Translations under genes and position numbers: made by a program
Part shown: positions 3,001-43,441 of the stretch, piece after piece
Layout of the letters: each line of letters begins with the position of its first letter
How positions within the stretch are numbered: the first letter of the stretch is position 1
IMG/VR virus record: IMGVR_UViG_3300020204_000006
Reading direction: 5' to 3' (one strand)
DNA length: 64,000 bases
DNA from: a virus
Notes under the pieces: model-generated
What the model was told of the DNA's origin: nothing
What the model saw: only the letters and a program-made list of their open reading frames with translations
The model's database searches: none

Positions 3001-6000
3001 TGTTTTCTTTCCTGGAATAGAGGCCTCTACTTTTGAATGGGTTCTTAATAATTGCAGATCTATAATTGAAGCATCGCAGGGGAAGCCTGTTAATGTGTAC
3101 GTAAGTCCTGTGATATTTCCAGGAAGTGAGTATACTTTGGAATCTGTTAGACAGAGTAATTTCACTCTTCCTTTGTCTCAATTAAAATCTAATATTGAGG
3201 CATTGCCAAAGCTTGTTGTTTCTACTCCATACATGGAAAGAGTTATATTTAAACCAATGAGGCAGGCCGGAGTAAAAAGAATGCATATGTGGATGGAATG
3301 GAGATACACTCATAATATTGCAAGGCTTTTGCCATCTGGATCTTCTACTTTCGGCATAACGGATGCTGATATATATCTTTCAAGAAAAATGATTAATGAT
3401 TTGTTTATTGATCAGAATTTTAGGTCTCCTATAGACCTTAGTGATGACTCTTTGTGGAACTCTCCCTCTACCAGAGAAGAAGTTATACGTTCAGCTTTGT
3501 CTAAAGATATAGAGATGGCCAATTCATTTAGGTCTGATGGTGTTGATGGAAATGAAAATGCAGTTTGGGCTTATTGTTGGAATGCACCTGATTCTACTGA
3601 TGTAAATAAATTCGAAAGAGTTAAGCCAATGATTTGGGTTTCAGGTGGTCAGAGATATGACATAGATCCAAGACCTACTATCGGAGAACTTTCAGTCGTT
3701 GTTTCTAGATTGAATCAGTTGCCTCCTGGAAAAAGAACGTTGGGGCTAATGAGGTACAATTCATCTGCTATTTGGAATAATCCTTCCGATTTCTTGCTTG
3801 GGCAATTTAAGAGCCCTTGGCCAGATAATGAGCTTGAAAATATGAAAAATGATTGGCAATCTATACTTGGCGATCTAAAGTCGTTGAACGCTCCTATAGA
3901 TTTTGTTTCTATTGACAATGAAGGAAAGTTTTCTGCTGGTCCAGCATGGTATGACCCCGCCAATTCTACAAATCTTTCTTGGATTGAGGCCATAAAGAAT
4001 GATTTAAGGTATAATCAATCGTGGAAAGGCTTTTCCAGCCTATCTAGTAAAATATCTCCTTTCAATATAGACCAAATATTTACTTTTGGATCAACTGATG
4101 ATTATATTGGTTATTGGAGGGGTCTTGGTCATCTTGGAGCTGCAGCATTAAATTATGCCATATGGGATCCACTAACTGCCATTTATCCTAATGTTGGTGG
4201 CAGTAATTATCAGGGAAATTTTGTTTTATATGGTGATAGTTTTCCTGATACGAATGGTCATGAGTTTGCTTATGATAACATATTTGGAACTTCTTCAAGC
4301 CCCGCATTATATGGTTCTTGGAAAAATACTCCTCCTCCATCCGGTCCTGGATCAAGAGTAATTAGTCCATCTGATCCAACTCATATTATTAGGTGGAACG
4401 GATCTGATCCTCAAACTCCGTCTTCTCCTTGGTTCGCGTTTTTGATAGATATTCAGGCCGTCAGGGCTTGCAAAAGAAGCAATGAACAGTTGCAGGATGA
4501 ACCGGATATAGAACCTTGGATAGCCTCTGTCTCATGGTCCGGTGATACCGCTTATAATTATGAATACAAAAACAACAAGTCTTACTATTATGAAATGATT
4601 AGACATGCAGTTTTAAATGGGGCTCAAAGATTTGCCGTATGGAATCCTTTTGAATCTTCATCCACAAATAGCGGATTTTTAGATGACGTTTTAAGGGACA
4701 TAAATATTAAAATACTTTCAGCCACAAAGAATGTCACGATTACTGACAGAATAAGCTATCTTTCTAAATATTTGATATCTGGAGTAAGAAGACAAGATGG
4801 AGATTATATATGGAGAATAACTCCAAAGCCAGGGGTTAATTTGACAATATCCGGAGGGACTGAGCTTTTTGATACTTCTTCTAACGGCGGTTTTGCAAAT
4901 GTCGGCAGATGGTTTTTGACATCTAGCTCATCTCCTCCTTCGGTTTTTGTAGATTCTAGTAGTTCTAGCTCATCTAGCAGCAGCAGCGGTTCCAGCAGTA
5001 GCAGTAACTCCAGCAGTAGCAGTCAGTCCAGCAGTAGCAGCGGTTCCAGCAGTAGTAGCGGTTCCAGCAGTAGTAGCGGTTCCAGCAGTAGTAGCGGTTC
5101 CAGCAGTAGTAGCGGTTCCAGCAGTAGTAGCGGTTCCAGCAGTAGTAGCGGTTCCAGCAGTAGTAGCGGTTCCAGCAGTAGTGGCAGTTCCAGCAGTAGT
5201 AGCAGCAGTCGTTCTAGTAGTTCTAGCTCATCTAGTAGCAGCAGTCGTTCCAGTAGTAGCAGTAATTCAAGCAGTAGTAGCAATTCCAGCAGCAGTAGCT
5301 TGTTGAGTAGTTCAAGTTCGACAAGCAGTAGTTCAAGTAGTTCATTGTATATGGAATATGACCCGTATTCCGGACCTCAGCCAAGAATCACGGTGGTGCA
5401 AATTGAATCTAGTGAGCCCTCTTTTGTAAACGAAGAATTTGGAATAAATTATTTTAAGGGTGTTTTTGGTGGAGCTGTTTATGATTCTGTTGAAATTAAT
5501 TTTAGAGATATTGTAAAAGTAATGGCAAAAGCAGATTCTATAAACGGTATTATTAAATTTATTGGAAATACTAAATTTGCCAAATACGACAAATTAACTA
5601 TTTCTCTTTCTAGTGTTTCTCATAATAATTCAGGAGATGTTGATCATATAACTATAGAAGATTCTTTTGAGGGGGTAAATGCGGGATTACCATCTTTATT
5701 GAGTAGGGTTGTTCATTCTAATATAAATTTATCTTCAGCTTTCATAGTATCATCTGAATTTGGTAGTGACTTTGAGGGCTTCCAGTCTTTCATAGTTTCA
5801 AATAATGATCCCAATAAAATAAGTTATGATACCTCTGATTTCAATAAAAAACAACTATTTTCTTCATCTGAATTTAGTGTAAATGAAAACTTTATTAACT
5901 CTATGTTGTTTGATGAAGAGCAAAATTCTGTTCTTCTTGGTGGTAAATTTGGCGTTTACAAATTCTCCTTGGACTCTAAGTATTTGGTGTATGATGTTAG

Positions 6001-6844
6001 GTTTATGGGTTCTGTAGACTGCATAAATATATTGCAAACTTCAGTTGAAATAATTGCTGTTTGTTCTGGTGGAATATATGTTTACAGTAAATATAGCAAC
6101 TCAAGTTATGTAATAAGTCTTATGGGTTTTCCGTTTAAGATTTTTGGTGGATTTATAACATCTAAAAATGATCTTGCTGTATTGACTTCTGGTGGAATAT
6201 TTATAAAAAATAAAGATGCCAATCAGATAATTCCTGTCCTACAGGATATAGTTTCTAGTTCAAGTTCTTCTGGTCAGAGTTCTAGCTCTTCTAACTCCTC
6301 AAGTTCTAGTTCTTATAGTAATTTTGTTTCTTTTTACAAAGGCATAGGATATCAAATTAATATGGCTTTTACTGATAAGAATTTGTATTACTCTGGACAA
6401 ATATCTCAATGGGCAAAATCGGAAGGTGTTCTTCCTTCAACTTCAATATCTGACGTTGTAATTTTTGGAAATAATTTATATATATGCACATCTTCTGGTT
6501 TGTATGTTAATAAGCTTTCTGAGATATTTACTCTGAATTTTAAAAAGGTTATTTTAGATGTTAATAACCAAAATTTAAGTATTAATGCATTAGGTGCTTC
6601 TTATTCATTTAATGATGAAGGTGCAAGGGTGGATCAATTAATGCTTGCTGGAGACGAAAAAGGGAAAATATACTCAATTGTTATAAATAATGATGAGCAG
6701 GTAACAAGTACTGTTCAAACAGAGTTTTCAGTTATTCATAAGGTATTAAGAGTGGAAGATGACTGGATTTTATCATCGTATAATCAATTTAAACTACTTA
6801 GTAACGATAAGATATATACCTTGTCTCTTGGGGTAGATGTTTAA
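14..6844 (+). CDS. Giant modular protein 1, probably 5'-truncated by the window: RCC1-like propeller, two TIM-barrel glycoside-hydrolase-like domains, 130-aa Ser-rich linker, C-terminal beta-propeller
   Basis: 2276-aa ORF. The frame is also open from position 2 (G-N-I-V) to the ATG, so the true start is probably upstream. RCC1 repeats such as FKQVDGGYHHSIALREDGTVVCWGENNDGECDVP; IDFVSIDNE motif; C-terminal blades such as ISDVVIFGNNLYICTSSGLYV. Confidence 0.85.
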   Translation: MCKGKSQSIIIGLCNGIENFQGIKGVKSNEICVNFGSDVKVKEFFGNAFKVPNRADPFILYGKSSYGDASSKFDFYRESYLECKNYNIFNQEYMYNFLSDFDYWKINSISEIWDRAFDIPNVHMETDVMEYSTGSRSPVTQRSSSVDTASDENYASISHGYSNVIFYTTRDGTVKYIAGYNANPALPESERNVIGAGIRNITPFSSPYGSFLAGQGGVDLTPPSDLPKCKQVVTGYRNAHALTVNDSIVSWDGTPHQQWKKTSEVFMQQLRYYQQPGRRLEGVKIKKISPGAGFVAVLLTNGEVITYGANESAQMSDVDTVLTPIGIIPLPVRGDNFYIKRWKAYKTWKYGENLSTYLDPLSSPNSCVTQQEIDEEANDDFPDTDSGTNSNWRLYRSAALGCEQHEGSGAIADSPYINGSNIYPPPPVSWSGFLDWSKFTGAPNDYQFSRSTTGDVSSVNFSFGASWTRNSDRIPMTVVYPCTTDPDGECSYISNGYQRPQGHPLESDRPPNSLFGFSGNRYRDVACSRTSIILMTENGNLESWGMNFYYNVTGSGRQFGAFRRMGSGIPGGNSNDAGWSTPGHPRPFPDAPWGDNSAVEVKRLKTTPESLLGIGTGYYISIVIRRDGSIFAWDRNEWGESLPRSNSDGTPGLPSGIFKQVDGGYHHSIALREDGTVVCWGENNDGECDVPSILKNPITSKCVWVCALSRMSFALRDNGDLIGWGNTDEAAMGFKGFTSGSVFNPGEPILLTFADSSSSSSSSSSSSSVSSSSSSSSDLAEGYIVTSSLPGRDATLAELNIIIPSLVQNNIKYSHTLYGSDVDSSSWLGSDPLCCDVNLTIFGQKVQEHISSWSSINTEYNFYYGNPEYVVLNMLHTLGVPVELQEILPIEEDITSGRGLRAFNMLTGLLDTTKSVLPQSSVSQYSYPFLPYFFLPRPDGGDACTWSSRWAGLSLEDYENEKDRLLNLLKNKVASFAPHTDIITTAHYATYSERRAVFFPGIEASTFEWVLNNCRSIIEASQGKPVNVYVSPVIFPGSEYTLESVRQSNFTLPLSQLKSNIEALPKLVVSTPYMERVIFKPMRQAGVKRMHMWMEWRYTHNIARLLPSGSSTFGITDADIYLSRKMINDLFIDQNFRSPIDLSDDSLWNSPSTREEVIRSALSKDIEMANSFRSDGVDGNENAVWAYCWNAPDSTDVNKFERVKPMIWVSGGQRYDIDPRPTIGELSVVVSRLNQLPPGKRTLGLMRYNSSAIWNNPSDFLLGQFKSPWPDNELENMKNDWQSILGDLKSLNAPIDFVSIDNEGKFSAGPAWYDPANSTNLSWIEAIKNDLRYNQSWKGFSSLSSKISPFNIDQIFTFGSTDDYIGYWRGLGHLGAAALNYAIWDPLTAIYPNVGGSNYQGNFVLYGDSFPDTNGHEFAYDNIFGTSSSPALYGSWKNTPPPSGPGSRVISPSDPTHIIRWNGSDPQTPSSPWFAFLIDIQAVRACKRSNEQLQDEPDIEPWIASVSWSGDTAYNYEYKNNKSYYYEMIRHAVLNGAQRFAVWNPFESSSTNSGFLDDVLRDINIKILSATKNVTITDRISYLSKYLISGVRRQDGDYIWRITPKPGVNLTISGGTELFDTSSNGGFANVGRWFLTSSSSPPSVFVDSSSSSSSSSSSGSSSSSNSSSSSQSSSSSGSSSSSGSSSSSGSSSSSGSSSSSGSSSSSGSSSSSGSSSSSGSSSSGSSSSSSSSRSSSSSSSSSSSRSSSSSNSSSSSNSSSSSLLSSSSSTSSSSSSSLYMEYDPYSGPQPRITVVQIESSEPSFVNEEFGINYFKGVFGGAVYDSVEINFRDIVKVMAKADSINGIIKFIGNTKFAKYDKLTISLSSVSHNNSGDVDHITIEDSFEGVNAGLPSLLSRVVHSNINLSSAFIVSSEFGSDFEGFQSFIVSNNDPNKISYDTSDFNKKQLFSSSEFSVNENFINSMLFDEEQNSVLLGGKFGVYKFSLDSKYLVYDVRFMGSVDCINILQTSVEIIAVCSGGIYVYSKYSNSSYVISLMGFPFKIFGGFITSKNDLAVLTSGGIFIKNKDANQIIPVLQDIVSSSSSSGQSSSSSNSSSSSSYSNFVSFYKGIGYQINMAFTDKNLYYSGQISQWAKSEGVLPSTSISDVVIFGNNLYICTSSGLYVNKLSEIFTLNFKKVILDVNNQNLSINALGASYSFNDEGARVDQLMLAGDEKGKIYSIVINNDEQVTSTVQTEFSVIHKVLRVEDDWILSSYNQFKLLSNDKIYTLSLGVDV
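4955..5344 (+). repeat. Ser-rich 18-bp tandem repeat array (X-SSSSS), including 7 perfect copies of GGTTCCAGCAGTAGTAGC at 5042-5167
   Basis: Read directly from the sequence; encodes 130 aa that are mostly Ser. Confidence 0.97.
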
Positions 6845-9800
6845 TGGCACTTACAATAAATAATAATCCCTCAAAGTACGATCTGTGGACATATGAAGGT
6901 TCTGGAAGAATTCCCATAGGTCCAAATTACAATAATATTTTTATATTAAATGGTATTCAAAATATATTTTGTGTATCTGCTAATTCAAGGTCAACTGCAT
7001 CTGTTCCCAATGGTCCTCCTGCATCTTTTAATTGCAACGGGTCTTTAGTTAATTCTTCTGGTTCAATAAACGGTCCTTTTGTAATTGCTATATCTCCTCA
7101 TTGCGCTGTAGGTTCTTTAAAGAATTTCATAAGTGCTGGTCAGCCAATAAAGTTCTGGTACAAGCACGCAAATGGCGGATCTGGTGGTTTTATTACTAGG
7201 ACAGCTTCCAACATAAGATTTTCTTCTAGTCCATCAAGGCCATATGAATGGGTTGCTGGCGGCTACTATGAAGGCACATCAAGTTTGTATTCTGGTTCTT
7301 TTAGTGATGTTTTGGTTTACTTTTTTGATGAGCCATTGCCAGTTGATGCTGATTTTGCGGTGTTGCCCATATTTAATGACTATAAAATGTGGAGAAAAAA
7401 CTCTGGAGTCTTCCCATACAATCCTGGTGTTATAGTTGATCATGATTCAAGAATGGTTCCTGGATCTGTTTTTATGAATTTCACTGAGATTTATGATTCT
7501 GATCAAATCGGTGGCGTTACTCCTGGTGCATCAGATGTAAGAATAACTGGAATAGACGGGTACTTTCTTTCAGATTTAAATTCAATATCAGATAAAAAGT
7601 ATAAAGAAAATTACTTAAAATATTTAGATGAAGACGCTTCTTATTATGACAACATATTTAGAATTATAAAAGGTGGTGCTACGGATTCAACTTCTCCAAT
7701 ATTTGAAGTTGATTTTGAAAGCAACTGTTTAGTCCTTTATTCCTTGTCTACTATTTTAACTAATAATAGAAATCCGAGTTGGATTAAATCTCAAAATAAT
7801 TACGATTGTCTTTGTGGTATTAGGAAGGGTAATCTGGTATCAGTAAATATGTTTGGTTTGGATTATTTTGACAGATCAGAAAATCCATACATAAGACTTG
7901 GAAAAAACTTTTTCAATACTTCAAGACTTGAGGGTGATCCTTTTATTCCAGGAGAGCCTAATGTAATACCTTCAGATCTTTATAAAATACCCGTAAAAAG
8001 CATAGACTCTGAATATATAAATAAATTTTATTTGGGCTTTGATGTTTTAGATTATAATCAAGAGTCTAGATTTTCAAAAGCTTACTCTCTTGGATACTCT
8101 CATTATTTCTATCTTGATAATTACTTTGATTCTTCTGATCCTTTTGATGGACCATTCATACCTAATGGCCCTGGCGTGCCATTCCAATTAAGGAACAGTT
8201 TTAATGTTTCTGGTACAATAAATTATTTTTCTCAAAAGTATCCAAGCACTTGGGACCAAAATTCTAGCAAAAATTTAGTTATTGGGATATATGGATATTC
8301 AGGATCTGGATCTTATGGTTCTTTTACTGTTGTCTCTGATTTCAAAAATGCAATAAATCAAGATAGTTTTAGTGGATTTGATTTAGTAATAGGATCGGCA
8401 TCTTTTAAAGAAGCAAAAAGTAAAATAATAAAGTATATTTCTGACATTAAAGCTGCGTTGCCAAATATGAAAATAGGCTGGTGTGACTTGGTAGGTTATT
8501 CAAATTGGTACCCACCTTATGTCTATGGAGATTTACCAGAAAGTGAAAAATCTTGGTTAAGTGTAAATGATTCACAAAAAAGTCTTATATTTAATTGTTG
8601 GGATAAAATATGGGAAGGTGTGATAGAAAAGTTAGATTTTATATCTTTTTCTTTTAATGATAATGTAAATAGAAATAGTAACGCTGGTTCAGATCCAGCT
8701 TTATGGCATGAGGTAAATAGAAAGAGAGCAGAAATAGCAATAGAGTATGTAAAAAGATATTGTTATAGAAAAAACATACGTTGTCCCAAAATTTTACCGT
8801 GTATATCTTCATGTACTGGAGAAAACATATTTGAGAATTGCGGTACATCTAATCTTTTTAGTCACGCAAACAGGCCTATTTCTGATGTTGAATTTATAGA
8901 GAGAGTTGTTTCCCCTTGTGTTGATTACGGAGTGGATGGTTTTATTTTAAAGAATAATTCTATATTTGAAGAATATTACGATGGATGGATAAATCCAAAT
9001 ATTAATATTAATTCAAGAAGAAAATTGTCATATAATTACATATGCAATTCTGCTTCTTCTATTGATTTATCAGATTGTTCTTATTATAATATAATAAATA
9101 ATTATTCCCTCTGTAGTGCATCTCAAAATGCACAAAATGTTATAAACTCAATATTTTCATATGTTGAAAACAAGATGTCTGTTCTTTCTAGGTATCTTGT
9201 TGATTTTGAGGCATTTGGTTCTGGCTCCTCATCTCTTAAAAATTTTAGTTTAATAACTGAAATTGGCATGAACCCCTGGGACACTAGTGCAGAACAGTTA
9301 GAAAAGTATTCATTGCTTAATTATGATCTTTTTAATTCTACCCCTAGTGTTGATTCTCATATGAATTACACTTCAAGCGTTCTAGCTGATAGTTTTATTG
9401 AAAATCCTATTTATTCAAATGGTGTTGATTGGGATCCTGACAATACAAATATATCTATATATTCTTATGATTCTACTTATTCTGCCGGTAATTTAGTTAA
9501 ATTTTTTGATACAAAAACTTATAGATGGTGTGTTTTCCAGGCAACACAGAGCGTTTCTGTTGGTGATTATCCTGGAAGAAGTAATTATTTTTCAACAGAC
9601 GGATCTGGCAATCGAGAATATTATAGATCAAATATAAATATAAGATGGAAATGTGCAGATATAAATTTCTTATACTCTCACTATTCTTTGGTGCCAAGCA
9701 TAAATAAGTACTATGAAAATAACAAATTAAGTCTTGTTAAAGGTCGCAGTAAATATAAGGCTTATGATCTAGAGGTTCCGTGGACATTTTTACCTGTCCA

Positions 9801-12800
9801 TGAAGCAAATTATCTTTTATATTACGATCAGGGTGTTTACGGGCTTAGAAACGGGTATGAAGATTTTAATTTTGACGGAGGATTTGTCAATTTAACTTCA
9901 TCTGGTTTTGGATATTCTCATGAATTAGGTGCTGATTTATTTAAGAATTTCTATTTCTCTTCTGTTAGCTCTTTATTTGATTCAAATAAAGGCATTATAT
10001 CTGATTTTATATTTTGGTATAAAAATATATCAGAGGATAAACATAAAAAATCATTTACTGATAATTTTATTTATGATTTAATCTTTTCTTATGATTTTAA
10101 TAGTGCATCTTATGATGAATTTGATAAGCCACAGATTGTATCAAATCTTGGTATATCTGAAAACGTAACAAGATACCAAATATTTGAATATCAAAAATAT
10201 ATTGTTCCCAAAATAGAAAGAATAATAAAAGAAAAATCACATGGAAAATATGTGATGAATTCTGGTGATTTTAGATTTGACTGTGGTTTAATAACAACAG
10301 AAAACACTGGCTCTAGAGATGATAATGGTTCTCAAGAATTTATGGTGAATTCTTTGAGGCAACTTACAGAAAGCACTCCTCATGTAAGTTCTTGGGACTC
10401 TTTTGGAAGAAATATTTCATCAATTGGTTCTACAGAATATTACGAGCCAATATTTTTACCTCAATTTTGGTTCGGCAAAAAAGATGGACTATATGATGTT
10501 GTTTTTGAAAGAACAAGAGATATAAGCATATTTAGTTCAAATTATTCTCTTAATAGGTTTGTAAATGATTCTTTACAGATGTATTCTTCTGACGCAAGTA
10601 TTATTACTTTTAAGGTTTTAGGTAAGGATGAAAATAGTGTTAGTCTTATCTCGGAAAAAGATCAGTATGGTTTTATCTTTGGTCTTGGTGTAAAATCAAT
10701 TTCTCTTATTATAGAATCTTACGAGGAGCAGGGTAGTCCAGTTAAAAGCCGCGATGGAGATGGAGAAGAATATGGACCACCAAGTTTTTCACCAGCAATT
10801 GAAAAATATTGGATATGTAATCTTTCAATTGAAATGAATTCCCAAGACTCTCAAAATGATTTTGAGAGAAAATTTGGTAAAATATTTTTTAATAAATTGA
10901 TGGGCAATCTTCATTCAGATGGACTAAAATTCTTCACAAGATGGAAAATAAATAAAAAAGGCGTAGTGTATCCATCTACTTTTCCTGTTAAGTCATTTAA
11001 TCCGTCGTCTTTGTATCACCTTTTAGAGCAAGACGATATTTCTATATTTGATGTAAACAGTAGATATAACGCAAGTATAAGTTTGTGGTCAAACTCTGAA
11101 ATTATGTTTGCGACTAACAGTTATACTTATTCTGCAAAATCTCTTTCCTCTCTTCCTCCGCTGTCTGGTGGAAGTGGTTACTATCCTGTATATAAAAACG
11201 GTCAGGAATTATATCAATTTAATTCAGACCATTCTGGTATAGAATTTATTTCAAATGCTTTAGACTCAAAGCATTACGAAGAACTTAAAAATCATTTTAG
11301 TATATTTGATTCAGAAAATAAAAATACTTTGATGGTTCGTTCTTATTACGGTCTTTTGCCCTTATGGATGTCTAAATATGGTCTTGACGATCCTCAGTTT
11401 AGATATAATACTAGATATAGTGACAAAAGTTTAGAGCTTTCTAGCAAGAACTCTCGTGAATATACTGGTTTTTTGATACATAGTAATTATGGTCGTGGAA
11501 CATCAGCTGCTCAAACTCCATACGAAAGTTATGAAGAATCCGTAGCCAGTCTGATGAAGGTTGCAAAAAATCTTAGTCCCAATAAAGTAATTGTACCATT
11601 TGTTTGTCCAAAAAGCATTGGACAGCACTATTTTATTTCTTGTCTATATCATCCAAAGGAATTTTGTTATTATCTGGTTAGGCCATGGTTTATAGGTAAT
11701 TACCGTGCAGACGCAGTTCACGTTTGGGATTCATATGTATATTATGTAAATTCTTGTTTTTACGATCTTTCTAATTACTCAGAGCCAGCTGGTTTTAGAA
11801 CTGGTATTGAAATGGCTATTTTTAATGGCAACATGCTTTCAATCGATGATGCATGGAATATAAATAACTCCTCATCTTTTGATTGGAACTCGGTTGAAAA
11901 AGGTGGAATGCTTTGGGATAATTACGGCGAAAAGGCTATGATTAATTTGGAATATACTTCTTTAAATGGAAATGATTCCTATTATGAAAAACCAAAAATA
12001 GTCATATTCATTAAAGAAGTAGTGTCGCTTTATTTAAAAGATCTTTACTCTGAGCTAAACAAGCTGCTTCAAAATCCTGAAATTTACGAAAGGCCATCTG
12101 ATAAGTCCATAGGTTATGATGTTCTCTCTTTCTTGAATGGGCTTCTTGTGTCTTGTCAAAATGAACTTAAAGTTGAAATAGTTGGTGGTGGATCTTACTC
12201 ATCTGAAAACTGGGTTGGTTATAAAATAGAATGGTACAAGTCGAAATCATACGTTGATAATCCATATGGTTTTGAGCTTATATACACGGAATCTGGTGCT
12301 GGATTTATTCAATATATATATGCTCCCAGGGCATTAACAGATCTTCTTGCCAATGGAGACGTAATAAAGGCAAAGTTGCATGTTAATACTGGCTACGGTT
12401 TAAATTCTTCATCTACATATGAATGCTCACTATATTTTGATTCCAAAGTTAATAACATAGGAAATTATTTTATACCTAGTTCTGTCGTTAACACAAGAGA
12501 AAAGAACATTTTAAAAATCGTAAATTCAGAACAAATAGCAATGCTTGTTGATCCCCCAAGCAGCTCAAGCAGTTCAAGTGGTTCATTTAACAATTCTTCT
12601 AGTTCTAGTTCTATTTCTTTATCTTCATCTTCTTCTAGCTTAAGTTCAAGTTCAAGTTCAAGTTCAAGTTCTTTGCTTTATATTCCTGGTGGTGATTTGC
12701 CAGAACCTTCTTCTTCTTTAGATTATGAGGTTTGGGCTGCGCATTTTACTGGAAACATGTTTGATGCAAATAATCCAGAATACGGAAGATTTGGTCATCC

Positions 12801-34326: not shown

Positions 34327-35255
34327 AAATATTTATAAGCGACAAGAAATTATCTGGTGGGCCATCTGTTTTTAAAGAACTTTTAAAAAGTTCTCTTAAA
34401 AAGAAAGGCTATCATTTAGTGTTAGATACTTCTGAAAAAGTAGATATTGAATTAGGTTTTATATCTTTTAAAAGTAAAAATTCAAAAAAGAGAATCTTGA
34501 GACTTGATGGAGTATATTATCAATCTCATCAGATTTCTATGAATTCGGAAATTAAAGAAAATATAAAAAAGGCAGATGCAATAATATATCAAAGCGAATT
34601 CTCAAAATCTATGGTAAAAAACATGGTATTAGATACTCATGTACCAGAATGTGTAATTTACAATGGCACGGATTTAAACAAGATAAAATCGGCTAGTCCA
34701 TTAAAAAAATATTGTAAAACACAATTTGTTATGTGTGCTGATTGGAGAAATACAAAGAGACCCATGTCTGCTGTAAGAGGTTTTTGCAAGTGGATTAAAG
34801 ACAATAAAATTAAAGATACAAAACTTGTAGTGATAGGAGATTTTGGTAAATATAAAAATGAAATTTCAAGCGATTATAAAAATAATATAATTTTGTTAGG
34901 CGATGTTAAAAATTCTTTAATATTTCCAGTTCTAAAGTCAAGTGACTTTATGATACATCTTTGTTTTATAGACTCTTGCCCTAATTCTGTTGTTGAAGGT
35001 ATCTCTTGTGGTCTTCCTGTGCTTTGTACAAACCTTGGAGGTACAAGGGAAATAGTTGGCGACTATGGGCATGTTATAAATTATGATAGTTTCAATTTTT
35101 CTCCAACAGAAAAAATTATAGACAATATACCTCCTGATATAGTTTCTGATGGAATAAATGCTCTCTGTAGTAAAAATTATAATAATAAAAATACTAAAAA
35201 CTTAGATATTAATATAGTTGTCGATAAATATATAAAATTTATGGAGTCTTTATGA
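34323..35255 (+). CDS. Glycosyltransferase, GT4-like (GT-B)
   Basis: DSCPNSVVEGISCGLPVL...GGTREIV, the GT4 C-terminal motif; ATGA overlap. Confidence 0.85.
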   Translation: MKIFISDKKLSGGPSVFKELLKSSLKKKGYHLVLDTSEKVDIELGFISFKSKNSKKRILRLDGVYYQSHQISMNSEIKENIKKADAIIYQSEFSKSMVKNMVLDTHVPECVIYNGTDLNKIKSASPLKKYCKTQFVMCADWRNTKRPMSAVRGFCKWIKDNKIKDTKLVVIGDFGKYKNEISSDYKNNIILLGDVKNSLIFPVLKSSDFMIHLCFIDSCPNSVVEGISCGLPVLCTNLGGTREIVGDYGHVINYDSFNFSPTEKIIDNIPPDIVSDGINALCSKNYNNKNTKNLDINIVVDKYIKFMESL

Positions 35256-36004
35256 AAAAATACTATGTTACACAGTCTTGCTCTAAATTTACTCCTATAC
35301 TAAAAGTTTTTTATAAAAATATAAAATCACTAAATTTTTTTGATGGGATTATAGTTTACACTGATGACAAAAATTTTTGCCCTAATGACAATTTTATAAA
35401 TGTTGTTCACGGAAAAGACAGAAGTTATTCTTCCAATTTAAAAAATGCAGTTGACGCTTGTGACCAGGATTGTTTTTTTTGCGGCTGTGAAGATTACATG
35501 TTCTTAAAAGAAGACTTTAACAGAAACAGCTATCTTGTTAATTCAATTTTTAATTTTTTTAGTTCTTATAAAAATTTAGGAATATTAAGATTAAACAAAG
35601 CTGTTTGTATAGGTGATAAATCTAAATTTATAGATAAATCTCTTGGAATTTATGAAGTTCCAAAAAAATATCAGTATTGTGTTAATCTTCAGCCGTGCAT
35701 GTGGAAAAAAGAATTTTTTTATGATTTATTTAAAGACAAGCTTGACGCTTGGGAGTTTGAATTGAAATTTTCTTCTCGAGCTAGAGAGCATGATATGGCT
35801 TGTGCATGCACAGAAAAAGACTTAATGGTATTGATAAATGGCAATAAGCAGGGAAACTCTTATAGAGACAAATTTGTAGATCTTGCTGATTCATTTGGTT
35901 CTGAAATAGATTTTTCAAATTCACTCGTATATGTGAAGAAGAATGGTATCAAAAAAACTGTTTCTTATAAAGAATACATTAAAAACAACAAGTTTGAAAA
36001 ATGA
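35252..36004 (+). CDS. Putative glycosyltransferase (GT-A-like, unclassified)
   Basis: FFCGCEDYMF, LQPCMWKK and AWEFE resemble a GT-like family seen in glycan loci; cluster context. Confidence 0.5.
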   Translation: MKKYYVTQSCSKFTPILKVFYKNIKSLNFFDGIIVYTDDKNFCPNDNFINVVHGKDRSYSSNLKNAVDACDQDCFFCGCEDYMFLKEDFNRNSYLVNSIFNFFSSYKNLGILRLNKAVCIGDKSKFIDKSLGIYEVPKKYQYCVNLQPCMWKKEFFYDLFKDKLDAWEFELKFSSRAREHDMACACTEKDLMVLINGNKQGNSYRDKFVDLADSFGSEIDFSNSLVYVKKNGIKKTVSYKEYIKNNKFEK

Positions 36005-36990
36005 AATTAGGTAATTTTTTTAGAGTTGGTATTACTGGAATGGATTTTCAGGGAAAATTTCATGATTTTGACATTGGTATTGTTAGAAAATATTTGTCAA
36101 TAAGTGATCAGGAAAAAAAACTTCCAAATAATAGTTTTTACATAGTGTCTACTTCGCATTTGTATAGTAGTCAGGTTCTAATTTCAAAAAAAATAAAGTT
36201 TGCTTGCCATCCATTTGGCGAAAAATGCAACCATTTATTCCAGGGTATTAAGTGCTATGATTTGTGTGAGTCTGACATGGTTGATCCCTCTTGGTGTTAT
36301 AATAAAAGCCTAGAAAAAATATTTGACGTTATGTGTATAACAAATGATTCTATGCATGGAATAAGCTGTAAAGGTTTCCATTACATACCCTGCCTATTTG
36401 AAGCCTGCAAAAAAGCTAATCTTTCTTTGTGTGTTGTTAATTATACGGGCAAGAAATACAGATCAAATGATTCTGAACTTCTATCAATAAGAAAATTTAT
36501 TAAAAAAAATTCTTTGAATATGCAACAGAGTAAGCCAAAAATTTCACAAAAACAAGTTAATAAAATAATGCAGGGTGCAAGAATTTTATGTGTTCCAAAT
36601 TACTTGGACGCTAGCCCCAAAATAATAACAGAATCAATTATAAGAGGAGTGCCTGTTGCTCTTGGAAATTGTATAGTTGGTGGCACTAAATATATAGATG
36701 GAGAAAATGGTAAAATTTTTGAATGTGCAAAATCTTATAAAGAGTTTTGTTCAAATAAAGATTATTATGTTGATAGTCTTAAAAATTGTCTTATATCTTT
36801 AACATCAAAAAAATCAGATAGAAAAATTATGGTAAAAAACTATATGTCAAAATGGGGTCTTGCATGTACGAGTCGCAGACTTGCAGATATTTTAAAAGAA
36901 CATAATATGATACCTGGCAACATATCTTACGTTTTTTATCCTGAATTCAAAAAACAAATGGAGAATCTTTATGAAATTTTTCATAAATGA
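36001..36990 (+). CDS. Glycosyltransferase, GT-B/GT4-like
   Basis: LCVPNYLDASPKIITESIIRGVPV...GGTKYI matches the GT-B C-terminal E-x7-E-type region. Confidence 0.7.
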   Translation: MKLGNFFRVGITGMDFQGKFHDFDIGIVRKYLSISDQEKKLPNNSFYIVSTSHLYSSQVLISKKIKFACHPFGEKCNHLFQGIKCYDLCESDMVDPSWCYNKSLEKIFDVMCITNDSMHGISCKGFHYIPCLFEACKKANLSLCVVNYTGKKYRSNDSELLSIRKFIKKNSLNMQQSKPKISQKQVNKIMQGARILCVPNYLDASPKIITESIIRGVPVALGNCIVGGTKYIDGENGKIFECAKSYKEFCSNKDYYVDSLKNCLISLTSKKSDRKIMVKNYMSKWGLACTSRRLADILKEHNMIPGNISYVFYPEFKKQMENLYEIFHK

Positions 36991-37885
36991 AAATTTTGAG
37001 GATAAAACAAGCGGCAAAATAAAATTTCTTGGATTGCTGTCTAGGTATCTTCAGGAAATGGGTTTAAAAATGGATAAAAATAACCCAGATGTTTTACTTC
37101 ATATTGGCAGAGATTATAAAAATTATATTAAAAAAAGTAAATTAATATGTAGGCTAGATGGTCTTGCAATAAATACAGATCAGGACTACAGCTCATCCAA
37201 TAATAAAATATATAAAGCTGTAAAAAATAGCAACGCGATTATTTATCAAAATGTATTTTGTAAAGAGTCTTATGAGTCTTTTTTTCCAAAACTTAAAAAA
37301 CAAAAAAACAAATGTATATTAAACGGAAACGTTGTTAAATATCATGGTAATAAAGAATTTTCTTTTTTAGCAAATGTAAAGTGGAGGCCTCACAAGAGAG
37401 TAAAAGAAACTGCTATGTGTTTTGCTAGGGCCTGTGACATGGGACTTAATAGTAAGCTTTATATAACCGGTGAGGTTTCTAAGGAAGATAGGATCGCGCA
37501 TAGCTCTATAGTTTATGCTGGATGGGTTCAGGACGCCGTATTAGAACAGCTGCTTGCTAAATGCTCTTTTGGATTGCATCTTGCTTGGCTTGACTGGTGT
37601 CCCAATACTGTAGTTGAATATTTATGCAACGGAATGTCTGTTTTGTATTCTTCTAGTGGTGGTACAAAGCATGTCGTTCAAGATAGTGGCATTTCTTTTA
37701 TTGATAAAGAGTGGGATTTCAAGCCACACAAACTTTACATTCCACCTAAAATAGACGTAGATCATGTCGCTAATAAAATTATAGATTTAACAAAAATTAA
37801 AAACGTCAATTCTGGTCATGTTGATATTTGCAGCATTGCAAATCAATATAGTTTATTTTTTAATGAGGTATGTAATGAAAAATGA
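36971..37885 (+). CDS. Glycosyltransferase, GT4-like; paralog of 34323..35255
   Basis: RLDG, IYQN.F.K, NVKWRPHKR, DWCPNTVVEYLCNGMSVL...GGTKHVV. Confidence 0.85.
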   Translation: MKFFINENFEDKTSGKIKFLGLLSRYLQEMGLKMDKNNPDVLLHIGRDYKNYIKKSKLICRLDGLAINTDQDYSSSNNKIYKAVKNSNAIIYQNVFCKESYESFFPKLKKQKNKCILNGNVVKYHGNKEFSFLANVKWRPHKRVKETAMCFARACDMGLNSKLYITGEVSKEDRIAHSSIVYAGWVQDAVLEQLLAKCSFGLHLAWLDWCPNTVVEYLCNGMSVLYSSSGGTKHVVQDSGISFIDKEWDFKPHKLYIPPKIDVDHVANKIIDLTKIKNVNSGHVDICSIANQYSLFFNEVCNEK

Positions 37886-38615
37886 AATAGGTGTAAGTAT
37901 AATAACTCCGCTGTATAACTATGCAAAATATATAGGTGAAAATATAAAATCAGTTAAAAAATCTGGTGATTATAGTGGTATAAATTATGAACATATAGTT
38001 GTAGATGATTGTTCAAGTGATAATCCTGGTCCTCATATTGAGAAGGGGTTTCACTCTAAACTAATATATATAAAAAGAGATAAAAACGGCGGTATGTCTG
38101 CTTCTAGAAATACAGGTCTTTTAAAATCTTCTTTTTGTTATGTTTGTTTTTTAGACTCAGATGACATGCTAACTAAAAGTAGTGTGATTGACAGATTCAA
38201 TAAGCTTGAAAAGGGATATGATTTTGTGCATGGTCCTGTTCTTTCTTGTTGCGAAAGAAAAAGGTCTATAAATAAAGAGTGGAGTAAATGGCCTTCAAAA
38301 TCTAAAACAGAGGAAGCATATAGATTTATACATGCCCAAGGAGTGTGCTGCAAAAAAGAATTATTCACAAAATATGGAATGTTTGATGAAAATTTAGTAT
38401 GGAAGGCTGATAGGGAAATGTGGTCTAGGCTTATTAATAGAGGAGTTAATATAGGTACTGTTTCCGAACCAGTTGCTCTTTATAGGAGTCATGACAAGCA
38501 GTGGAGCAAGCATCCTGAAAAATTAAAAAACAATGAAAGACTTACTTTGGAATTAAAGAAATTAATAGAAGTCAGGAGATCAAACTTAAATAATTTGAAA
38601 TTTTTAAATGAATAA
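37875..38615 (+). CDS. Glycosyltransferase, GT2 family
   Basis: VSIITPLYN...VVDDCSSD...SRNTGL...CFLDSDD. Start moved to the ATG at 37875 (GAGG upstream, overlap with the previous stop). Confidence 0.88.
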   Translation: MKNEIGVSIITPLYNYAKYIGENIKSVKKSGDYSGINYEHIVVDDCSSDNPGPHIEKGFHSKLIYIKRDKNGGMSASRNTGLLKSSFCYVCFLDSDDMLTKSSVIDRFNKLEKGYDFVHGPVLSCCERKRSINKEWSKWPSKSKTEEAYRFIHAQGVCCKKELFTKYGMFDENLVWKADREMWSRLINRGVNIGTVSEPVALYRSHDKQWSKHPEKLKNNERLTLELKKLIEVRRSNLNNLKFLNE

Positions 38616-39243
38616 AATTATAAAAAACATCATATTTGATTTAGACGGAGTTTTAGTAGATGCTTGTGACTGGCACTATGAATCTTTAAACAGGGCTTTG
38701 ACTAAAAATGGATTTGAAGAAATAAATATTTCCGATCATAAGAAGACTTTCAATGGCCTACCTACTAAAGTTAAATTAAAAATGCTTAATTTAAATGAAG
38801 AGCAAATTGAGATGGTATCAAAAGACAAACAGTATATAACTCTAAATGTTATACACGAAATGTGCTTGAGAGATAAGTCAAAAATAGATTTTATGTTTTA
38901 TTTAAAAAATCATGGAGTCAAAATAGGTTGTGTTACAAATAGCATAAAAAAAACTACAATAGCAATGCTATCTAATTGTGGAATAATAGACTTCATAGAC
39001 AAAATTATTACAAATGAAGATGTTGTTGTGCCTAAACCAGATCCAGAGGGCTATATTAAATGTATGAAAAGTTTTTCTGCATCTCCACAAGATACCGTGA
39101 TTGTGGAAGATAGTGAAAAAGGTGTTATGGCTGCATCAAAAACAAATTCATATATTTGGGTTGTAAAAAATGCAAAAAGTGTTACGATTGAAGATTTTAA
39201 CATGTTTTGTTCTTTTAATTCTTTAGGTATATTTGAAAAATGA
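38608..39243 (+). CDS. HAD-superfamily phosphatase (beta-phosphoglucomutase-like)
   Basis: IIFDLDGVLVD motif I; CVTNS; KPDPEGY; IVEDS..G. Confidence 0.9.
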   Translation: MNKIIKNIIFDLDGVLVDACDWHYESLNRALTKNGFEEINISDHKKTFNGLPTKVKLKMLNLNEEQIEMVSKDKQYITLNVIHEMCLRDKSKIDFMFYLKNHGVKIGCVTNSIKKTTIAMLSNCGIIDFIDKIITNEDVVVPKPDPEGYIKCMKSFSASPQDTVIVEDSEKGVMAASKTNSYIWVVKNAKSVTIEDFNMFCSFNSLGIFEK

Positions 39244-39959
39244 TAAACATAGTTATTCCTGCTGCTGGAAGAGGAAGTAGATTTTCTTCATTAACAAGCA
39301 CACCCAAGCCATTTATAGACATAAAGGGCAGAATTATGATTGATCATGCCATATCCAGTCTTGTTTCTAATTATGTTGATACATTTCAAGTCCATGTGTG
39401 TTTTCATAAAGATCATATTAAATATGAAAATTTTCTTAGTGAATTAAAAAATAGATATGATTTACACTTAACGTACATAGATTATGTGACGTCTGGTCAG
39501 GCAGAGACTGTAAATATACTAGTAAAAAAAATAAGTAATAATTATCCAATATTAATTGCTAATTGTGATCAGATAATAGAATGGGATATTAATGATTTTA
39601 TTTCTTATTGTTTTTTAAATAATCTAGATGGGTGCATTCCTGTTTTTAGTTCAGACTCAGATAAATGGTCTTATGCGCAAACTGATGATAACGGATTTGT
39701 TTTAAAAACTGTCGAAAAAAAAGTTATATCTAATAATGCAACTGTTGGTATTTATTATTGGAAAAATAAAGAAATATGCATTAAGTCAATAGAAGACATG
39801 AAGAGTAGTAATGACATGACTAATAATGAGTATTATGTTTGTCCAGCTTATAATTATTTAATAAAAAATGGTGGAAAAGTTATGATATGGAATGACATAA
39901 TAATGCATGGAGTTGGGACTCCGAATGACCTCAAAAGTTATATTGAATTACAAGGATAG
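39240..39959 (+). CDS. Sugar-phosphate nucleotidyltransferase (NTP_transferase family)
   Basis: VIPAAGRGSRF...PKPFI; ANCD; EK..IS..ATVGIYYW; GTPNDL. Confidence 0.9.
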   Translation: MINIVIPAAGRGSRFSSLTSTPKPFIDIKGRIMIDHAISSLVSNYVDTFQVHVCFHKDHIKYENFLSELKNRYDLHLTYIDYVTSGQAETVNILVKKISNNYPILIANCDQIIEWDINDFISYCFLNNLDGCIPVFSSDSDKWSYAQTDDNGFVLKTVEKKVISNNATVGIYYWKNKEICIKSIEDMKSSNDMTNNEYYVCPAYNYLIKNGGKVMIWNDIIMHGVGTPNDLKSYIELQG

Positions 39960-39965
39960 CAATTA

Positions 39966-40739
39966 ATGTTTTTTGTTACAACATTTAGTGAAAGAGGATA
40001 CAGGGAGTATGGAGAAAATATGCTTAATTCGTATGTTAAAAACTGCGACATTCCTATTTATGTATATTATGAAAATTTTAAACCAAACATAGTTAGTCAA
40101 AATATTAGATATGTAGACATATTTGAAGTCAATCCCGATCTTATTTCTTTTATAAAAAGGAACAAAGAAAGACCTGTTTCAAATTTTAAATTTGACGGAG
40201 TTAGATTTAGTTATAAAGTTTTTGCGATAACAAATGCTGGCGTGAATCATTCATCTGAATGGATGTTTTGGATAGACGCTGATACTGTATTTAAAGAAAA
40301 AGTTAATCCCAAACAGATGATAAAAAAAATGCAAGATTGTGCATCTCTAAAAGATTCTAAATGTATTGATAATTATGATTTGGCATGTTTTTCAAGAAGA
40401 AAGACACCAAAAAGGCCTCCAGAAAAGTGCTGGACAGAATGCGGATTAGTGGGATACAATCTGAGAAATCATAACACTTTAAACTTTCTTAAATTATTTA
40501 GAAATTTTTATATTAAGGATAAAATATATCAAGAAAAACAGCAGCATGATTCATGGATATTTGATGTTGTAAGAAAAAATTTGTCGCTTACAAATAAATT
40601 AATTGTTTTGAATTTAAACCCACAAAATTATTCTCACCCAATAGTACAGAGTCCAATGGGTTCTTTATTTGACCATCTTAAGGGCAAGTTAAGAAAAAGA
40701 AGAGGCTCTAGTCCTGAAAAAAGAAAAAATATTACCTAA
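39966..40739 (+). CDS. Putative glycosyltransferase (GT-A-like, DAD motif)
   Basis: FDGVRFSYKVFAI...WMFWIDADT; cluster context. Confidence 0.6.
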   Translation: MFFVTTFSERGYREYGENMLNSYVKNCDIPIYVYYENFKPNIVSQNIRYVDIFEVNPDLISFIKRNKERPVSNFKFDGVRFSYKVFAITNAGVNHSSEWMFWIDADTVFKEKVNPKQMIKKMQDCASLKDSKCIDNYDLACFSRRKTPKRPPEKCWTECGLVGYNLRNHNTLNFLKLFRNFYIKDKIYQEKQQHDSWIFDVVRKNLSLTNKLIVLNLNPQNYSHPIVQSPMGSLFDHLKGKLRKRRGSSPEKRKNIT

Positions 40740-41059
40740 TGAGACATTTTAATATAAAAAATTTTGATAGAGGATGGATAATAGGCAATTTTGATAATTC
40801 GGTGTTAAAAACAGAAGATTTTGAACTTGGTATTAAAAATTACAAATCTGGAGAATTTAATCCCAATCATTTACATAAACTCTCAAAAGAAATAAATTTT
40901 ATTGTAAGCGGTGTTGTAAAATTTAATAAAGAATATTTTAGTGCCGGTGATGTGGTAGTTGTCGAAGAAAATGAATGTAGCTTTTTTGAATGTATTGAAG
41001 ATTGTTGTATTGTAGTAGCAAGAAATAAATCTATAAGCACAGATAAGTATGAATGCTAA
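40739..41059 (+). CDS. Cupin-fold protein (possible sugar isomerase/epimerase)
   Basis: RGWIIGNF...HLHKLSKEINFIVSG...AGDVVVV, the cupin H-x-H-x4-E motif. Confidence 0.75.
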   Translation: MRHFNIKNFDRGWIIGNFDNSVLKTEDFELGIKNYKSGEFNPNHLHKLSKEINFIVSGVVKFNKEYFSAGDVVVVEENECSFFECIEDCCIVVARNKSISTDKYEC

Positions 41060-41534
41060 TTTTGACATAATAAGCCATAGAGGATATATAGAAGGTTGCA
41101 ATCAAGAATTTGAAAACAATCCAGATCATTTGGAACATTGTTTTGAAAGATATCCTTGGATGTTTTTTGAAATAGATGTATGGAAAATAGGAAATAATTT
41201 TTATCTTGGTCATGATGAGCCTATCTATAAGGTCTATCTTGATTTTTTATATAATAAAAAGTTTTATATTCATGCCAAAAATCTGAATGCCTTTGAGTTT
41301 TTATATCAAAATAAAAATGCCAATCTTTTTAGGGACATGTTTTATCATGATAAAGATGATGTTACTGTGACTTTATCTGGTAAAATATGGTGCAACAAGA
41401 AAATATGGGTTAAAAATTCAATACTTAATCAGGTTTCAGAGGAAACAATAAATTTATATGATTTAAATTATATTGGTATTTGTACTGACTTTCCATTAAA
41501 AGTTAAAAAATATATGGACCATCAATATGGGTGA
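41049..41534 (+). CDS. PLC-like/GDPD-like phosphodiesterase
   Basis: IISHRG...EN...EIDVW...LGHDEP...HAKN...GICTDF. Confidence 0.8.
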   Translation: MNANFDIISHRGYIEGCNQEFENNPDHLEHCFERYPWMFFEIDVWKIGNNFYLGHDEPIYKVYLDFLYNKKFYIHAKNLNAFEFLYQNKNANLFRDMFYHDKDDVTVTLSGKIWCNKKIWVKNSILNQVSEETINLYDLNYIGICTDFPLKVKKYMDHQYG

Positions 41535-42615
41535 TAGGGGAGTTATTATTTTTACAAATCATGTTGCTCCATGGCATATTGGAGGCAGTGAAATTGTTGT
41601 AGATAAAATAGCTGAAAATTTAGCCAATTATGTTCCGGTTGTTGTATGTGGTAGTGATGTCCCTGGTTACAAAAAATATAAAAATTATTTTCAGCACCGC
41701 GTTACAGACACTAATGATTTGAATTCTGTCTTGTCAAAATACAAAAACTATGAAATATTTATTTACAGTGATGGATATTTTTTTACAAAATTTATTTTAG
41801 ATTATTGCAAGTTAAGAAATAAAAAAGTCCATTTGGCTCCAGTCGGATTCAATATAACTAGGGAAAAGGAAGAACTTAAAAAGAGAATTTTATCATACAG
41901 CAATATAAAATATATATATCATGATGTTAATTATGTGGATTTTATATGGGGTAATGAAAATTTATCTACCATGCCAAAATATTCTTATTCAATAATACCA
42001 AATGGATTTGATGATTTTGAATTTAGTGGTACAGAAAAAAGACAATTTGACAAAAAGTCAATTATTACTATTGCTAATACTTTCCCATTTAAGGGTCATG
42101 ATTTGTGCATTGATGTTCTTGATGGTCTAATACAGGAATTTGACTTTGAATATCATATTTTTTGCACAACACCATCTTGGATTGTTGCTAAAAATAAAAT
42201 GAAATGGCTTATTTCGGAGTGCAACAAAAGATCAAAGTGGATGAGCGTTCACGTTGATTCTAAAAGAGAAAAAATGATTAGCTACTTAAAGGGTTCATCA
42301 CTTATGCTTTTTCTTTCTCAAAAAGAAGTAAGCCCACTTGTTTTAATAGAATCTTGTGCTGCTGGTGTTCCATGGATAGCTTTTAATGTTGGGAACTCAA
42401 GGTCAATACCATCTGGTGTTATTTTTGATGCAGAAGAAGATTTTAAGGGCAATAAGATAATGACCGAAAATTTGAAATTAAAAATCTCAAACTGCATAAA
42501 GAATGAAATATTTGATGGTAATTTAATTGTCGATAAAGCTATTTCAAATAATTTTTTATCCGAAAGATCGTGGTCATCTATATCTAAAATGTATTATGAT
42601 TTTATACTAAAATAA
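41527..42615 (+). CDS. Glycosyltransferase, GT4-like
   Basis: HIGGSE N-terminal loop; IIPNG; KGHD; EVSPLVLIESCAAGVPWIAFNVG. Confidence 0.85.
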   Translation: MGDRGVIIFTNHVAPWHIGGSEIVVDKIAENLANYVPVVVCGSDVPGYKKYKNYFQHRVTDTNDLNSVLSKYKNYEIFIYSDGYFFTKFILDYCKLRNKKVHLAPVGFNITREKEELKKRILSYSNIKYIYHDVNYVDFIWGNENLSTMPKYSYSIIPNGFDDFEFSGTEKRQFDKKSIITIANTFPFKGHDLCIDVLDGLIQEFDFEYHIFCTTPSWIVAKNKMKWLISECNKRSKWMSVHVDSKREKMISYLKGSSLMLFLSQKEVSPLVLIESCAAGVPWIAFNVGNSRSIPSGVIFDAEEDFKGNKIMTENLKLKISNCIKNEIFDGNLIVDKAISNNFLSERSWSSISKMYYDFILK

Positions 42616-42616
42616 T

Positions 42617-43441
42617 ATGAAAGTTTCAGTTTGCATAGCAGTTAAAAATTGTAGTAATTTTATAAAAGATTCACTATTTAGTATTTTGAATCAAGATTTT
42701 AAAGAAGATTGGGAAATATTACTTGGAGATGATCTGTCTAGCGATGGCACTATAGATGTTGTTATAGGTGCACTTAAATATATTGGTGGGAAAATTCCTG
42801 TTAGGTTATATAAATCTGATAAAAATATTGGATGTGGTCTTAGAAGGAATTGTCTTGTTAATTTTTCTTTTGGTGATTATGTTGCTATAGCTGACGGAGA
42901 TGACATATATCCTCCCAAAAGAATAAGTGAGCAGTACTCAATAGCTTCTTCTGATAGTGGAATATTTGCATTATCGGGATCCTGTAATGTTATTGATGAA
43001 TTTGGAAAAAGTATTTCACATATACACAAAGACAACATGACAGATCGTGAAATATTATATGCTCTTTCAAATACCTATGAAAACCCAATATGTGATCCAT
43101 GTTCATTTTTTGACAAAAAAATATTTTTTGAAATGGGAGGGTATTCTTGTTTAGATCAAAATAAGCTTATACCTGATCTTGATTTGTGGATGAGATTTTT
43201 TGAATTTTCAAGATACGGCATTATAAGCAACAAGACAATTTTGGTTTTTGAAAATACTTGGGTTGATTACAGAAAAAACCCAAATGGTAATACCGTAAAA
43301 TTTAGTCGAGAAATGATGCGTGCACATGGTTTAAGACGAAAGATATTTAACCACAGGCTTTTAAACGAAGCAAGTGTTGAATTTAAAAAAGATTTTTCAA
43401 CCCCTGGAAGGATGGAACTGATATATGAGCAAGGTTACTAG
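42617..43441 (+). CDS. Glycosyltransferase, GT2 family
   Basis: VSVCIAVKN...GDDLSSDGT...AIADGDD...DLDLW. Confidence 0.88.
   Translation: MKVSVCIAVKNCSNFIKDSLFSILNQDFKEDWEILLGDDLSSDGTIDVVIGALKYIGGKIPVRLYKSDKNIGCGLRRNCLVNFSFGDYVAIADGDDIYPPKRISEQYSIASSDSGIFALSGSCNVIDEFGKSISHIHKDNMTDREILYALSNTYENPICDPCSFFDKKIFFEMGGYSCLDQNKLIPDLDLWMRFFEFSRYGIISNKTILVFENTWVDYRKNPNGNTVKFSREMMRAHGLRRKIFNHRLLNEASVEFKKDFSTPGRMELIYEQGY

Follow-up and report, generated by a model that had tools for sequence, protein, structure and literature searches.

Giant modular proteins on polyserine linkers and an adjoining glycosyltransferase block in an uncultured freshwater jumbo phage

In Saccharophagus degradans more than 25% of over 180 depolymerases carry polyserine linkers, with tabulated examples of 25-58 amino acids (aa) (PMC2386152). 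In these enzymes, as in depolymerases of Cellvibrio and Teredinibacter, the serine runs part folded catalytic and binding modules. Here we analyse a 64,000-nucleotide (nt) stretch of viral DNA, IMG/VR record IMGVR_UViG_3300020204_000006 (the window, by which we always mean the whole stretch). Three giant genes with serine linkers, G1, G2 and G3, fill its first 33.6 kb, and they are followed by a block of 13 short genes (33601-43441) that includes several glycosyltransferases (GTs), and then by a replication and repair module. Serine runs part folded modules here too, and the window arrays look like the polyserine-linker device taken to its extreme. They differ from the bacterial linkers in that they lie in phage proteins without signal peptides, reach 223 aa, keep a strict X-Ser5 period and have GTs next to them. 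In addition, at least one of the modules tethered here resembles a polysaccharide lyase, a lead provided by a language model.

Loci for serine-rich-repeat glycoproteins (SRRPs), such as Fap1, GspB and PsrP, also adjoin a serine-rich extended region to soluble cytoplasmic GTs, and the original prediction, made from the window sequence without database searches, proposed an analogous glycosylation system. We retain this as a working analogy only. A soluble GT block is indeed kept behind a giant gene across the lineage, but there is no SRRP homology and the repeat chemistry is different: SRRP substrates repeat a Ser-x dipeptide and carry both an LPXTG anchor and a long signal peptide, whereas the window giants have X-Ser5 repeats, no signal peptide and no LPXTG. 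GtfA and GtfB (PF09318/DUF1975) are absent, Pfam scans of all cluster proteins giving only Glycos_transf_1 and Glyco_trans_1_4, and GtfA is not among the PDB profile matches of the core GT4, which are to BshA, TarM, PimA and WaaG. No DUF1792 protein was found in the GT block, and GalT1 of the Fap1 pathway (5hea) is one among many generic PDB matches of the GT2 enzymes. There is no SecA2, SecY2 or Asp1-3 among the open reading frames of 33601-63998, nor would these be expected in a phage. With no GtfA/B, no accessory Sec and no Ser-x repeats, membership of the SRRP class was rejected.

Viruses that glycosylate their own particles offer further points of comparison, though the likeness is one of principle only. 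Phage-encoded virion glycosylation is described for mycobacteriophages, Che8 and Corndog among them (Freeman 2023, as cited in PMC12619734). As far as the citing paper relates it, that system resembles the present one in its phage-encoded soluble GTs beside structural genes and in a proposed cytoplasmic action. By the same account the acceptors there are the C-termini of capsid and tail-tube proteins, not giant fibres. The cluster in the window is much larger, and a tblastn search with two of its core GTs revealed no sequence relation to the GTs of cultured phages. Megavirinae giant viruses carry clade-specific glycan gene clusters for their fibrils (PMC9614988). These too combine GTs with enzymes for nucleotide-diphosphate (NDP) sugars, change content from clade to clade (compare cluster types A-D and the window type below) and involve a fibre-like component. 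However, they belong to eukaryotic viruses in which glycosylation has been demonstrated chemically, whereas in the present system it is predicted.

Serine linkers and the giant proteins

Taking as a linker any 8 residues with at least 6 serines, we find 11 serine linkers in the three giants, 742 aa together, all positioned at module junctions (Table 1). The three long arrays sum to 578 aa, which agrees with the original estimate of about 570 aa; that estimate had attributed long arrays to all three giants, whereas G3 has short linkers only. The long arrays are tandem repeats with a period of 18 nt (Tandem Repeats Finder). Their unit is TCC AGC AGT AGY AGY NNN, X being mostly Gly, Gln or Asn, and exact matches of up to 42 nt are common to them. 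About 75% of the array serines are encoded by AGT or AGC and 15% by TCC, while TCT (45%) and TCA (21%) dominate in the rest of the same genes; GC content is 50% in the arrays against about 31% in their surroundings. Because of this GC content and the inverted codon use, the arrays are not a product of chance. The (X-Ser5)n arrays arose by amplification of one 18-nt unit, and their length changes fast.

The G1 array measures 143 aa in the window in the strain comparison (134 aa in the linker map), 83 aa in the relative P0001 and about 35 aa in P0002, at identities to G1 of 92% and about 88%, respectively. The contig DNA of P0002 lacks window nt 2317-5321, a stretch whose ends fall inside linker 1 and inside the long array. 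This 3.0-kb cassette, which encodes about 1000 aa of G1, is found in the window and in the 94%-identical relative L056, and is missing from the 90%-identical L057 (L057 6631-6677). Since this cassette is bounded by two linkers and is present or absent between strains, we regard the linkers as recombination joints for the gain and loss of fibre modules. The modules that flank the linkers are conserved and the linkers themselves vary. Sequence is also shared between genes: the DNA of the G1 array in the window is 82-87% identical to that of the G2 array in L056, a contig that terminates within its first long G2 array (25759-25944, the contig end). The linkers therefore share sequence between genes, break assemblies and serve as joints for module gain and loss. 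In the giants of G001, a more distant relative and the sole one found in IMG/VR, serine runs of 13-43 aa again lie at module junctions, one of them directly before a domain homologous to the post-array domain of G1. We think that this role of the linkers as hypervariable joints for module exchange is a firmer and more original result than any link to glycosylation. As the arrays break metagenome assemblies, their lengths in assembled sequence are to be treated with care; should the window derive from a short-read assembly, neither the exact length of any of the three long arrays nor the joins across them would be certain.

Serine makes up 17% of G1, 19% of G2 and 12% of G3. G1 is cut by the window edge, and its close relative P0001 has 2628 aa. 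We found no hydrophobic segments and no signal peptides in the giants. G2 gave no match in Pfam or PDB sequence searches and has no detectable homologue in G001. The G2 module that follows the long arrays is probably a heparinase II/III-like polysaccharide lyase, as judged from a language-model lead and not from an alignment. Of the three giants G3 alone is conserved throughout the lineage, G1 and G2 being hypervariable.

A codon-level scan for the X-Ser5 pattern returned 6 viral and 11 cellular contigs, all unrelated to the window; none of them has a match to the window GTs, and they carry no host signal. We also considered whether phage tRNA-Ser genes serve the arrays, and dropped the idea, as the serine runs of G001 use ordinary codons. 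G001 itself encodes a tRNA-Ser(GGA) and an unusual tRNA-Ser with the anticodon ACU, beside tRNA-Asn, tRNA-Thr and tRNA-Tyr (G001 167953-168040 and 206032-206123; L010, L012).

The glycosyltransferase block

The first GT gene starts 24 nt past the stop of G3, just as originally noted. Five products of the block score as GTs above Pfam cut-offs (those starting at 33601, 34323, 37818, 41527 and 42617), two more are sub-threshold GT4 proteins and two are leads only (35252 and 39966), so that the original count of about nine GTs is right in outline and generous in detail. For the 35252 product the AlphaFold model is poor (pLDDT 53), and Foldseek recovered no more than a weak resemblance to the GT-A/nucleotidyltransferase superfold. 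The 39966 lead is to GT8/PF03407 clusters, with 152-156 shared features, and its single-sequence AlphaFold model is useless (pLDDT 33). The predicted nucleotide-sugar cassette without a membrane, flippase or polymerase gene was borne out: a HAD hydrolase and a nucleotidyltransferase are both confirmed, the block has no flippase and no polymerase gene, and it has no transmembrane segment other than an artefact of the over-long N-terminus at 37818.

PDB profile matches of the core GTs include chondroitin and heparosan synthases, TagF, TarS/TarP and SpsA, together with the BshA, TarM, PimA and WaaG already mentioned. Protein-directed enzymes are matched too (the GalT1 of the Fap1 pathway, GmaR, SunS and polypeptide GalNAc-transferases), with no preference shown. 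The core GT2 profile also matches many proteins of 1000-4400 aa (P0007-P0152) in up to 10 separate stretches each; these are giant multi-GT fusions.

A metagenome scan with the bordering exonuclease as query yielded 24 related loci. Wherever these include upstream DNA, a G3-like giant precedes a GT2, variable genes, a GT4, a second GT2 and the exonuclease, in that order; about 17 metagenome contigs show this arrangement, as do more distant ones. In about 25 related contigs altogether a GT core lies between a G3-like giant and the exonuclease, with clade-specific additional genes. The core GT2 (33601-like) occurs at every related locus that has DNA upstream of the GTs, and directly behind the G3-like giant except in L065; at the 12 loci compared, the distance from the G3 stop to the first GT start is 0-24 nt or the genes overlap. 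The GTs evolve fast, with 26-42% identity across the lineage against 57-65% for the adjacent exonuclease.

The content of the block varies by clade. Type A clusters consist of the three core GTs only; type B adds two GT4-like genes and a 35252-like gene, and type C a GT4, a GT2 and a 192-aa protein without assignment. The identical 13 genes of the window type were found in 4 contigs from different samples, behind a G3 of 3917 aa. In type D, a PF01973 (MptE/Maf-like) protein comes after the GT2; its score of 35.9 bits is just above the cut-off. In this variant, seen in L063 (6264-7013), the protein has 249 aa and stands in place of the GT4-GT2 pair. The assignment to PF01973 was not confirmed by PDB sequence search. 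Maf factors, which are linked to the O-glycosylation of flagellin with nonulosonic acids, belong to this family, and the variant possibly points to a protein acceptor.

Table 1. Giant genes, serine linkers and genes of the glycosyltransferase block, in window coordinates
Feature	Position	Strand	Remarks
G1, giant modular protein	2..6844	+	5' end open at the window edge, 2280 aa visible; RCC1-type beta-propeller
G1 serine linker 1	2273..2350	+	26 aa; left border of the 3.0-kb domain cassette
G1 long (X-Ser5)n array	4949..5350	+	134 aa; right border of the 3.0-kb domain cassette
G1 serine linker	6248-6322	+	from linker mapping
G2, giant modular protein	6844..21696	+	4950 aa
G2 short serine linker	12553..12678	+	42 aa
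G2 long (X-Ser5)n array a	14704..15366	+	221 aa
G2 long (X-Ser5)n array b	15733..16401	+	223 aa
G2 module after the long arrays	16450..19200	+	language-model score 0.98, 216/256 features; clusters with PF07940 (heparinase II/III C-terminal domain)
G2 short serine linker	19210..19257	+	between two C-terminal modules
G3, giant	21811..33576	+	3921 aa; LamG, Kelch and weak vWA matches
G3 linkers, four, all short	27991-28146, 28558-28599, 29995-30027	+	9-21 aa; from linker mapping
Core GT2 (GT-A)	33601..34326	+	above Pfam cut-off
GT4, accessory	34323..35255	+	above Pfam cut-off; shared by type B, type C and window-type clusters
250-aa protein with conserved DD motifs	35252..36004	+	weak evidence for a GT-A/nucleotidyltransferase-like fold
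Probable GT4	36001..36990	+	below Pfam cut-off
Probable GT4	36971..37885	+	25.0 bits against a Pfam cut-off of 27
GT2	37818..38615	+	above Pfam cut-off; true start probably near 37890; gene calls in relatives 246-260 aa
HAD-IA hydrolase, beta-phosphoglucomutase-like	38608..39243	+	confirmed
Sugar-1-phosphate nucleotidyltransferase	39240..39959	+	confirmed
257-aa protein	39966..40739	+	language-model lead only: phage nucleotide-diphospho-sugar transferase/GT8-like clusters
Two small genes, 106 aa and 161 aa	40739..41534	+	faint cupin match (106 aa)
Core GT4, retaining, BshA/TarM-like	41527..42615	+	above Pfam cut-off
Core GT2	42617..43441	+	3' end shares 17 nt with the exonuclease gene
Mre11/SbcD-like exonuclease	43425..44630	+	right-hand border of the GT block; opens the replication/repair module

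What the block may modify

The best overall explanation, in our view, is that of modular giants on polyserine linkers together with a GT block that glycosylates virion proteins, a combination to which we give somewhat less than an even chance. Taken on its own, glycosylation of virion proteins by the block is slightly favoured; the narrower claim that the serine linkers are among the glycan acceptors is possible and on balance doubtful, and the link to the arrays is not established. The giants are chains of folded modules (RCC1 propeller, a probable heparinase II/III-like lyase, LamG, Kelch and vWA) strung on polyserine linkers, the arrays presumably functioning as long flexible tethers. Late in infection the GTs may assemble an O-linked oligosaccharide stepwise in the cytoplasm, directly on virion proteins and ahead of particle assembly, and the most obvious acceptors would be the exposed serine linkers of the giants. 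A soluble GT block without flippase or polymerase fits such direct cytoplasmic glycosylation of a soluble acceptor. Virion glycosylation seems the most economical reading partly because the 223 kb of G001 encode at least 13 GT domains, one of them directly preceding another giant gene. A bolder form, mucin-like fibres whose 130-220-residue tethers would be densely O-glycosylated in the cytoplasm by the clade-variable GT cassette, strikes us as slightly more doubtful than the acceptor role of the linkers and clearly more so than virion glycosylation. The original prediction had also pointed to N-x-S sequons in the arrays; this idea finds no support, as the cluster has no HMW1C-type GT41, no PglB-type oligosaccharyltransferase and no membrane protein.

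Several observations weigh against glycosylated giants. No glycosylation is known for the polyserine linkers of bacterial carbohydrases. The GT families of the block are generic, and their PDB profiles mix polysaccharide, teichoic-acid and protein-directed enzymes. The virion location of the giants is inferred from gene position only, because neither G1 nor G3 has a match in PHROGs. An SRRP-style function is weakened by the swing in array length from 143 to 35 aa between strains that are about 90% identical. Adjacency is ambiguous as well: since the last GT overlaps the exonuclease gene, it points equally to the replication module and to the fibres, and in L065 the GTs remain joined to the exonuclease and are set apart from the G3-like giant by three genes and a gap of 372 nt. 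By gene order the block is bound no less closely to the replication genes than to the fibres. Finally, the conserved partner of the GT core is the linker-poor G3, not the array-bearing, hypervariable G1 and G2. A complete G3-like giant of 3163 aa in L066 has no serine run of 5 or more, yet the GT2-GT4-GT2 trio is present, and no serine run occurs in the 1400-2400 visible residues of the G3-like giants at type B loci and in L031. The co-occurrence of X-Ser5 giants and GTs that the original prediction proposed as a check therefore does not single out the serine arrays, the GT core being kept beside G3-like giants free of serine runs.

These last points are what one would expect if the polyserine linkers were bare, acting as tethers and recombination joints only, while the GT block acted on other virion proteins (the G3-like giant, capsid or tail tube) in the manner of the mycobacteriophages. 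On that account the array-free giant of L066, the steady company of the GT core with a G3-like giant, and the unconstrained array length all fall into place, and bacterial polyserine linkers do function without known glycans (PMC2386152). Still, long exposed polyserine would be the richest O-acceptor in the proteome of a GT-rich phage, and the largest GT block (13 genes) coincides with the longest arrays, albeit as one observation in a single lineage. We consider this account, which suits the pairing of G3 with the GTs well, unlikely. The block might also act on host molecules during infection, whether precursors of envelope glycans, a protein or some small molecule, and so serve takeover or the exclusion of superinfecting phages. 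Such a role would suit the enzyme families, which match those of lipopolysaccharide (LPS), teichoic-acid, exopolysaccharide and bacillithiol synthesis equally well, and clade-specific cassettes could follow host surface types. It would leave the fixed location behind fibre genes across the lineage without explanation, however; the phage supplies NDP-sugar enzymes itself, and genes for a membrane GT, a flippase, a phosphoglycosyl transferase or a Gtr-type protein are absent. We judge host targets improbable.

The overlap with the replication and repair module raises another target, the phage's own DNA, which might be hypermodified with sugars against host nucleases, as by the T4 glucosyltransferases or the glycan clusters that act on 5-hydroxymethylcytosine (5hmC). 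The block abuts and overlaps that module, and in L065 the GTs stay with the exonuclease when they part from the giant. Moreover, the GTs that put glycans on phage DNA are of the GT-A and GT-B kinds and were recruited from LPS and teichoic-acid families; some are encoded near structural genes, and they place up to three sugars on 5hmC (bioRxiv 10.1101/2023.12.21.572611). That figure of about three sugars sits poorly with the 7-9 candidate GTs here. The window, part of an incomplete genome, has no C5-methyltransferase, TET/JBP-type oxygenase or hydroxymethylase, and the thymidylate-synthase fold (PF00303) is absent from the 223-kb G001, also incomplete, in a search with a valid control. A search for Tet_JBP (PF12851) gave no match, and neither did its control. 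DNA hypermodification is a genuine alternative and, in our estimate, slightly less probable again than host targets, and virion glycosylation is the reading that we carry forward.

The phage lineage and what the locus may mean

An uncultured freshwater jumbo phage is a fair description of the source, with the giants and the GT block presumably at the far end of its tail and fibre module. All window genes are coded on the + strand. The DNA is phage-like because of its split DnaE, DnaB, primase, RecA/UvsX-like protein and IF3, together with a relative estimated at about 400 kb; the jumbo label rests on that relative, G001, a 223.6-kb contig at a CheckV completeness of 55%. The original assignment to a jumbo phage is supported. 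The replication and repair module encodes an Mre11/SbcD-like exonuclease, helicases, an IF3 homologue, DnaB, a two-part primase, the split DnaE, a RecA/UvsX-like protein and a Cas4-like nuclease. Membership of the 'moraphage' group (PMC12619734) was rejected, as those phages have PolB where the window has a split DnaE. GenBank phages gave no DNA match to the window and no useful protein match for the GTs, and when two core GTs were compared by tblastn with 50,697 phage records, one marginal match came up.

Some features of the neighbourhood are worth recording. The DnaE-type polymerase III alpha subunit is encoded by two overlapping genes, 53163-54491 (PHP and the start of the NTPase domain) and 54475-56427 (the remainder, with fingers and HhH), and relatives have an additional separate gene of about 440-450 aa at this site. 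The IF3 homologue lies at 48703-49203, with its N domain above the Pfam cut-off, and its location is conserved in relatives, L001, L014 and L065 among them. L065 (a Logan SRR8931232 contig of 152.7 kb), which keeps the synteny but is more distantly related, translates correctly only if TAG is read as Gln; part of the phage group thus appears to use a recoded stop codon, which the window does not. All relatives share a gap of about 330 nt ahead of the helicase gene (46095-46429 in the window). Between G3 and the replication genes no other non-coding stretch of notable size occurs, and the gap may be a true transcription-unit boundary. Promoter and terminator scans gave signal at background level.

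The linkers are sites where length changes often and modules come and go, and they supply a concrete mechanism for domain shuffling in giant phage fibre genes. That the arrays break metagenome assemblies also accounts for the scarcity of such genes in databases. Should the mucin-like form prove true, the phages would carry a clade-specific virion glycotype and stiff, protease-resistant stalks that hold depolymerases off the particle. It would amount to an independent viral invention of the SRRP principle, with linkers that double as recombination joints for module swaps. Chemical demonstrations of a self-made viral glycan coat are known only for mycobacteriophages and giant viruses so far. If the block decorates the fibres described here, uncultured jumbo phages would have a variable glycan coat of their own making, with consequences for how they recognise hosts, how well they withstand proteases and grazers, and how immune and defence systems detect them.

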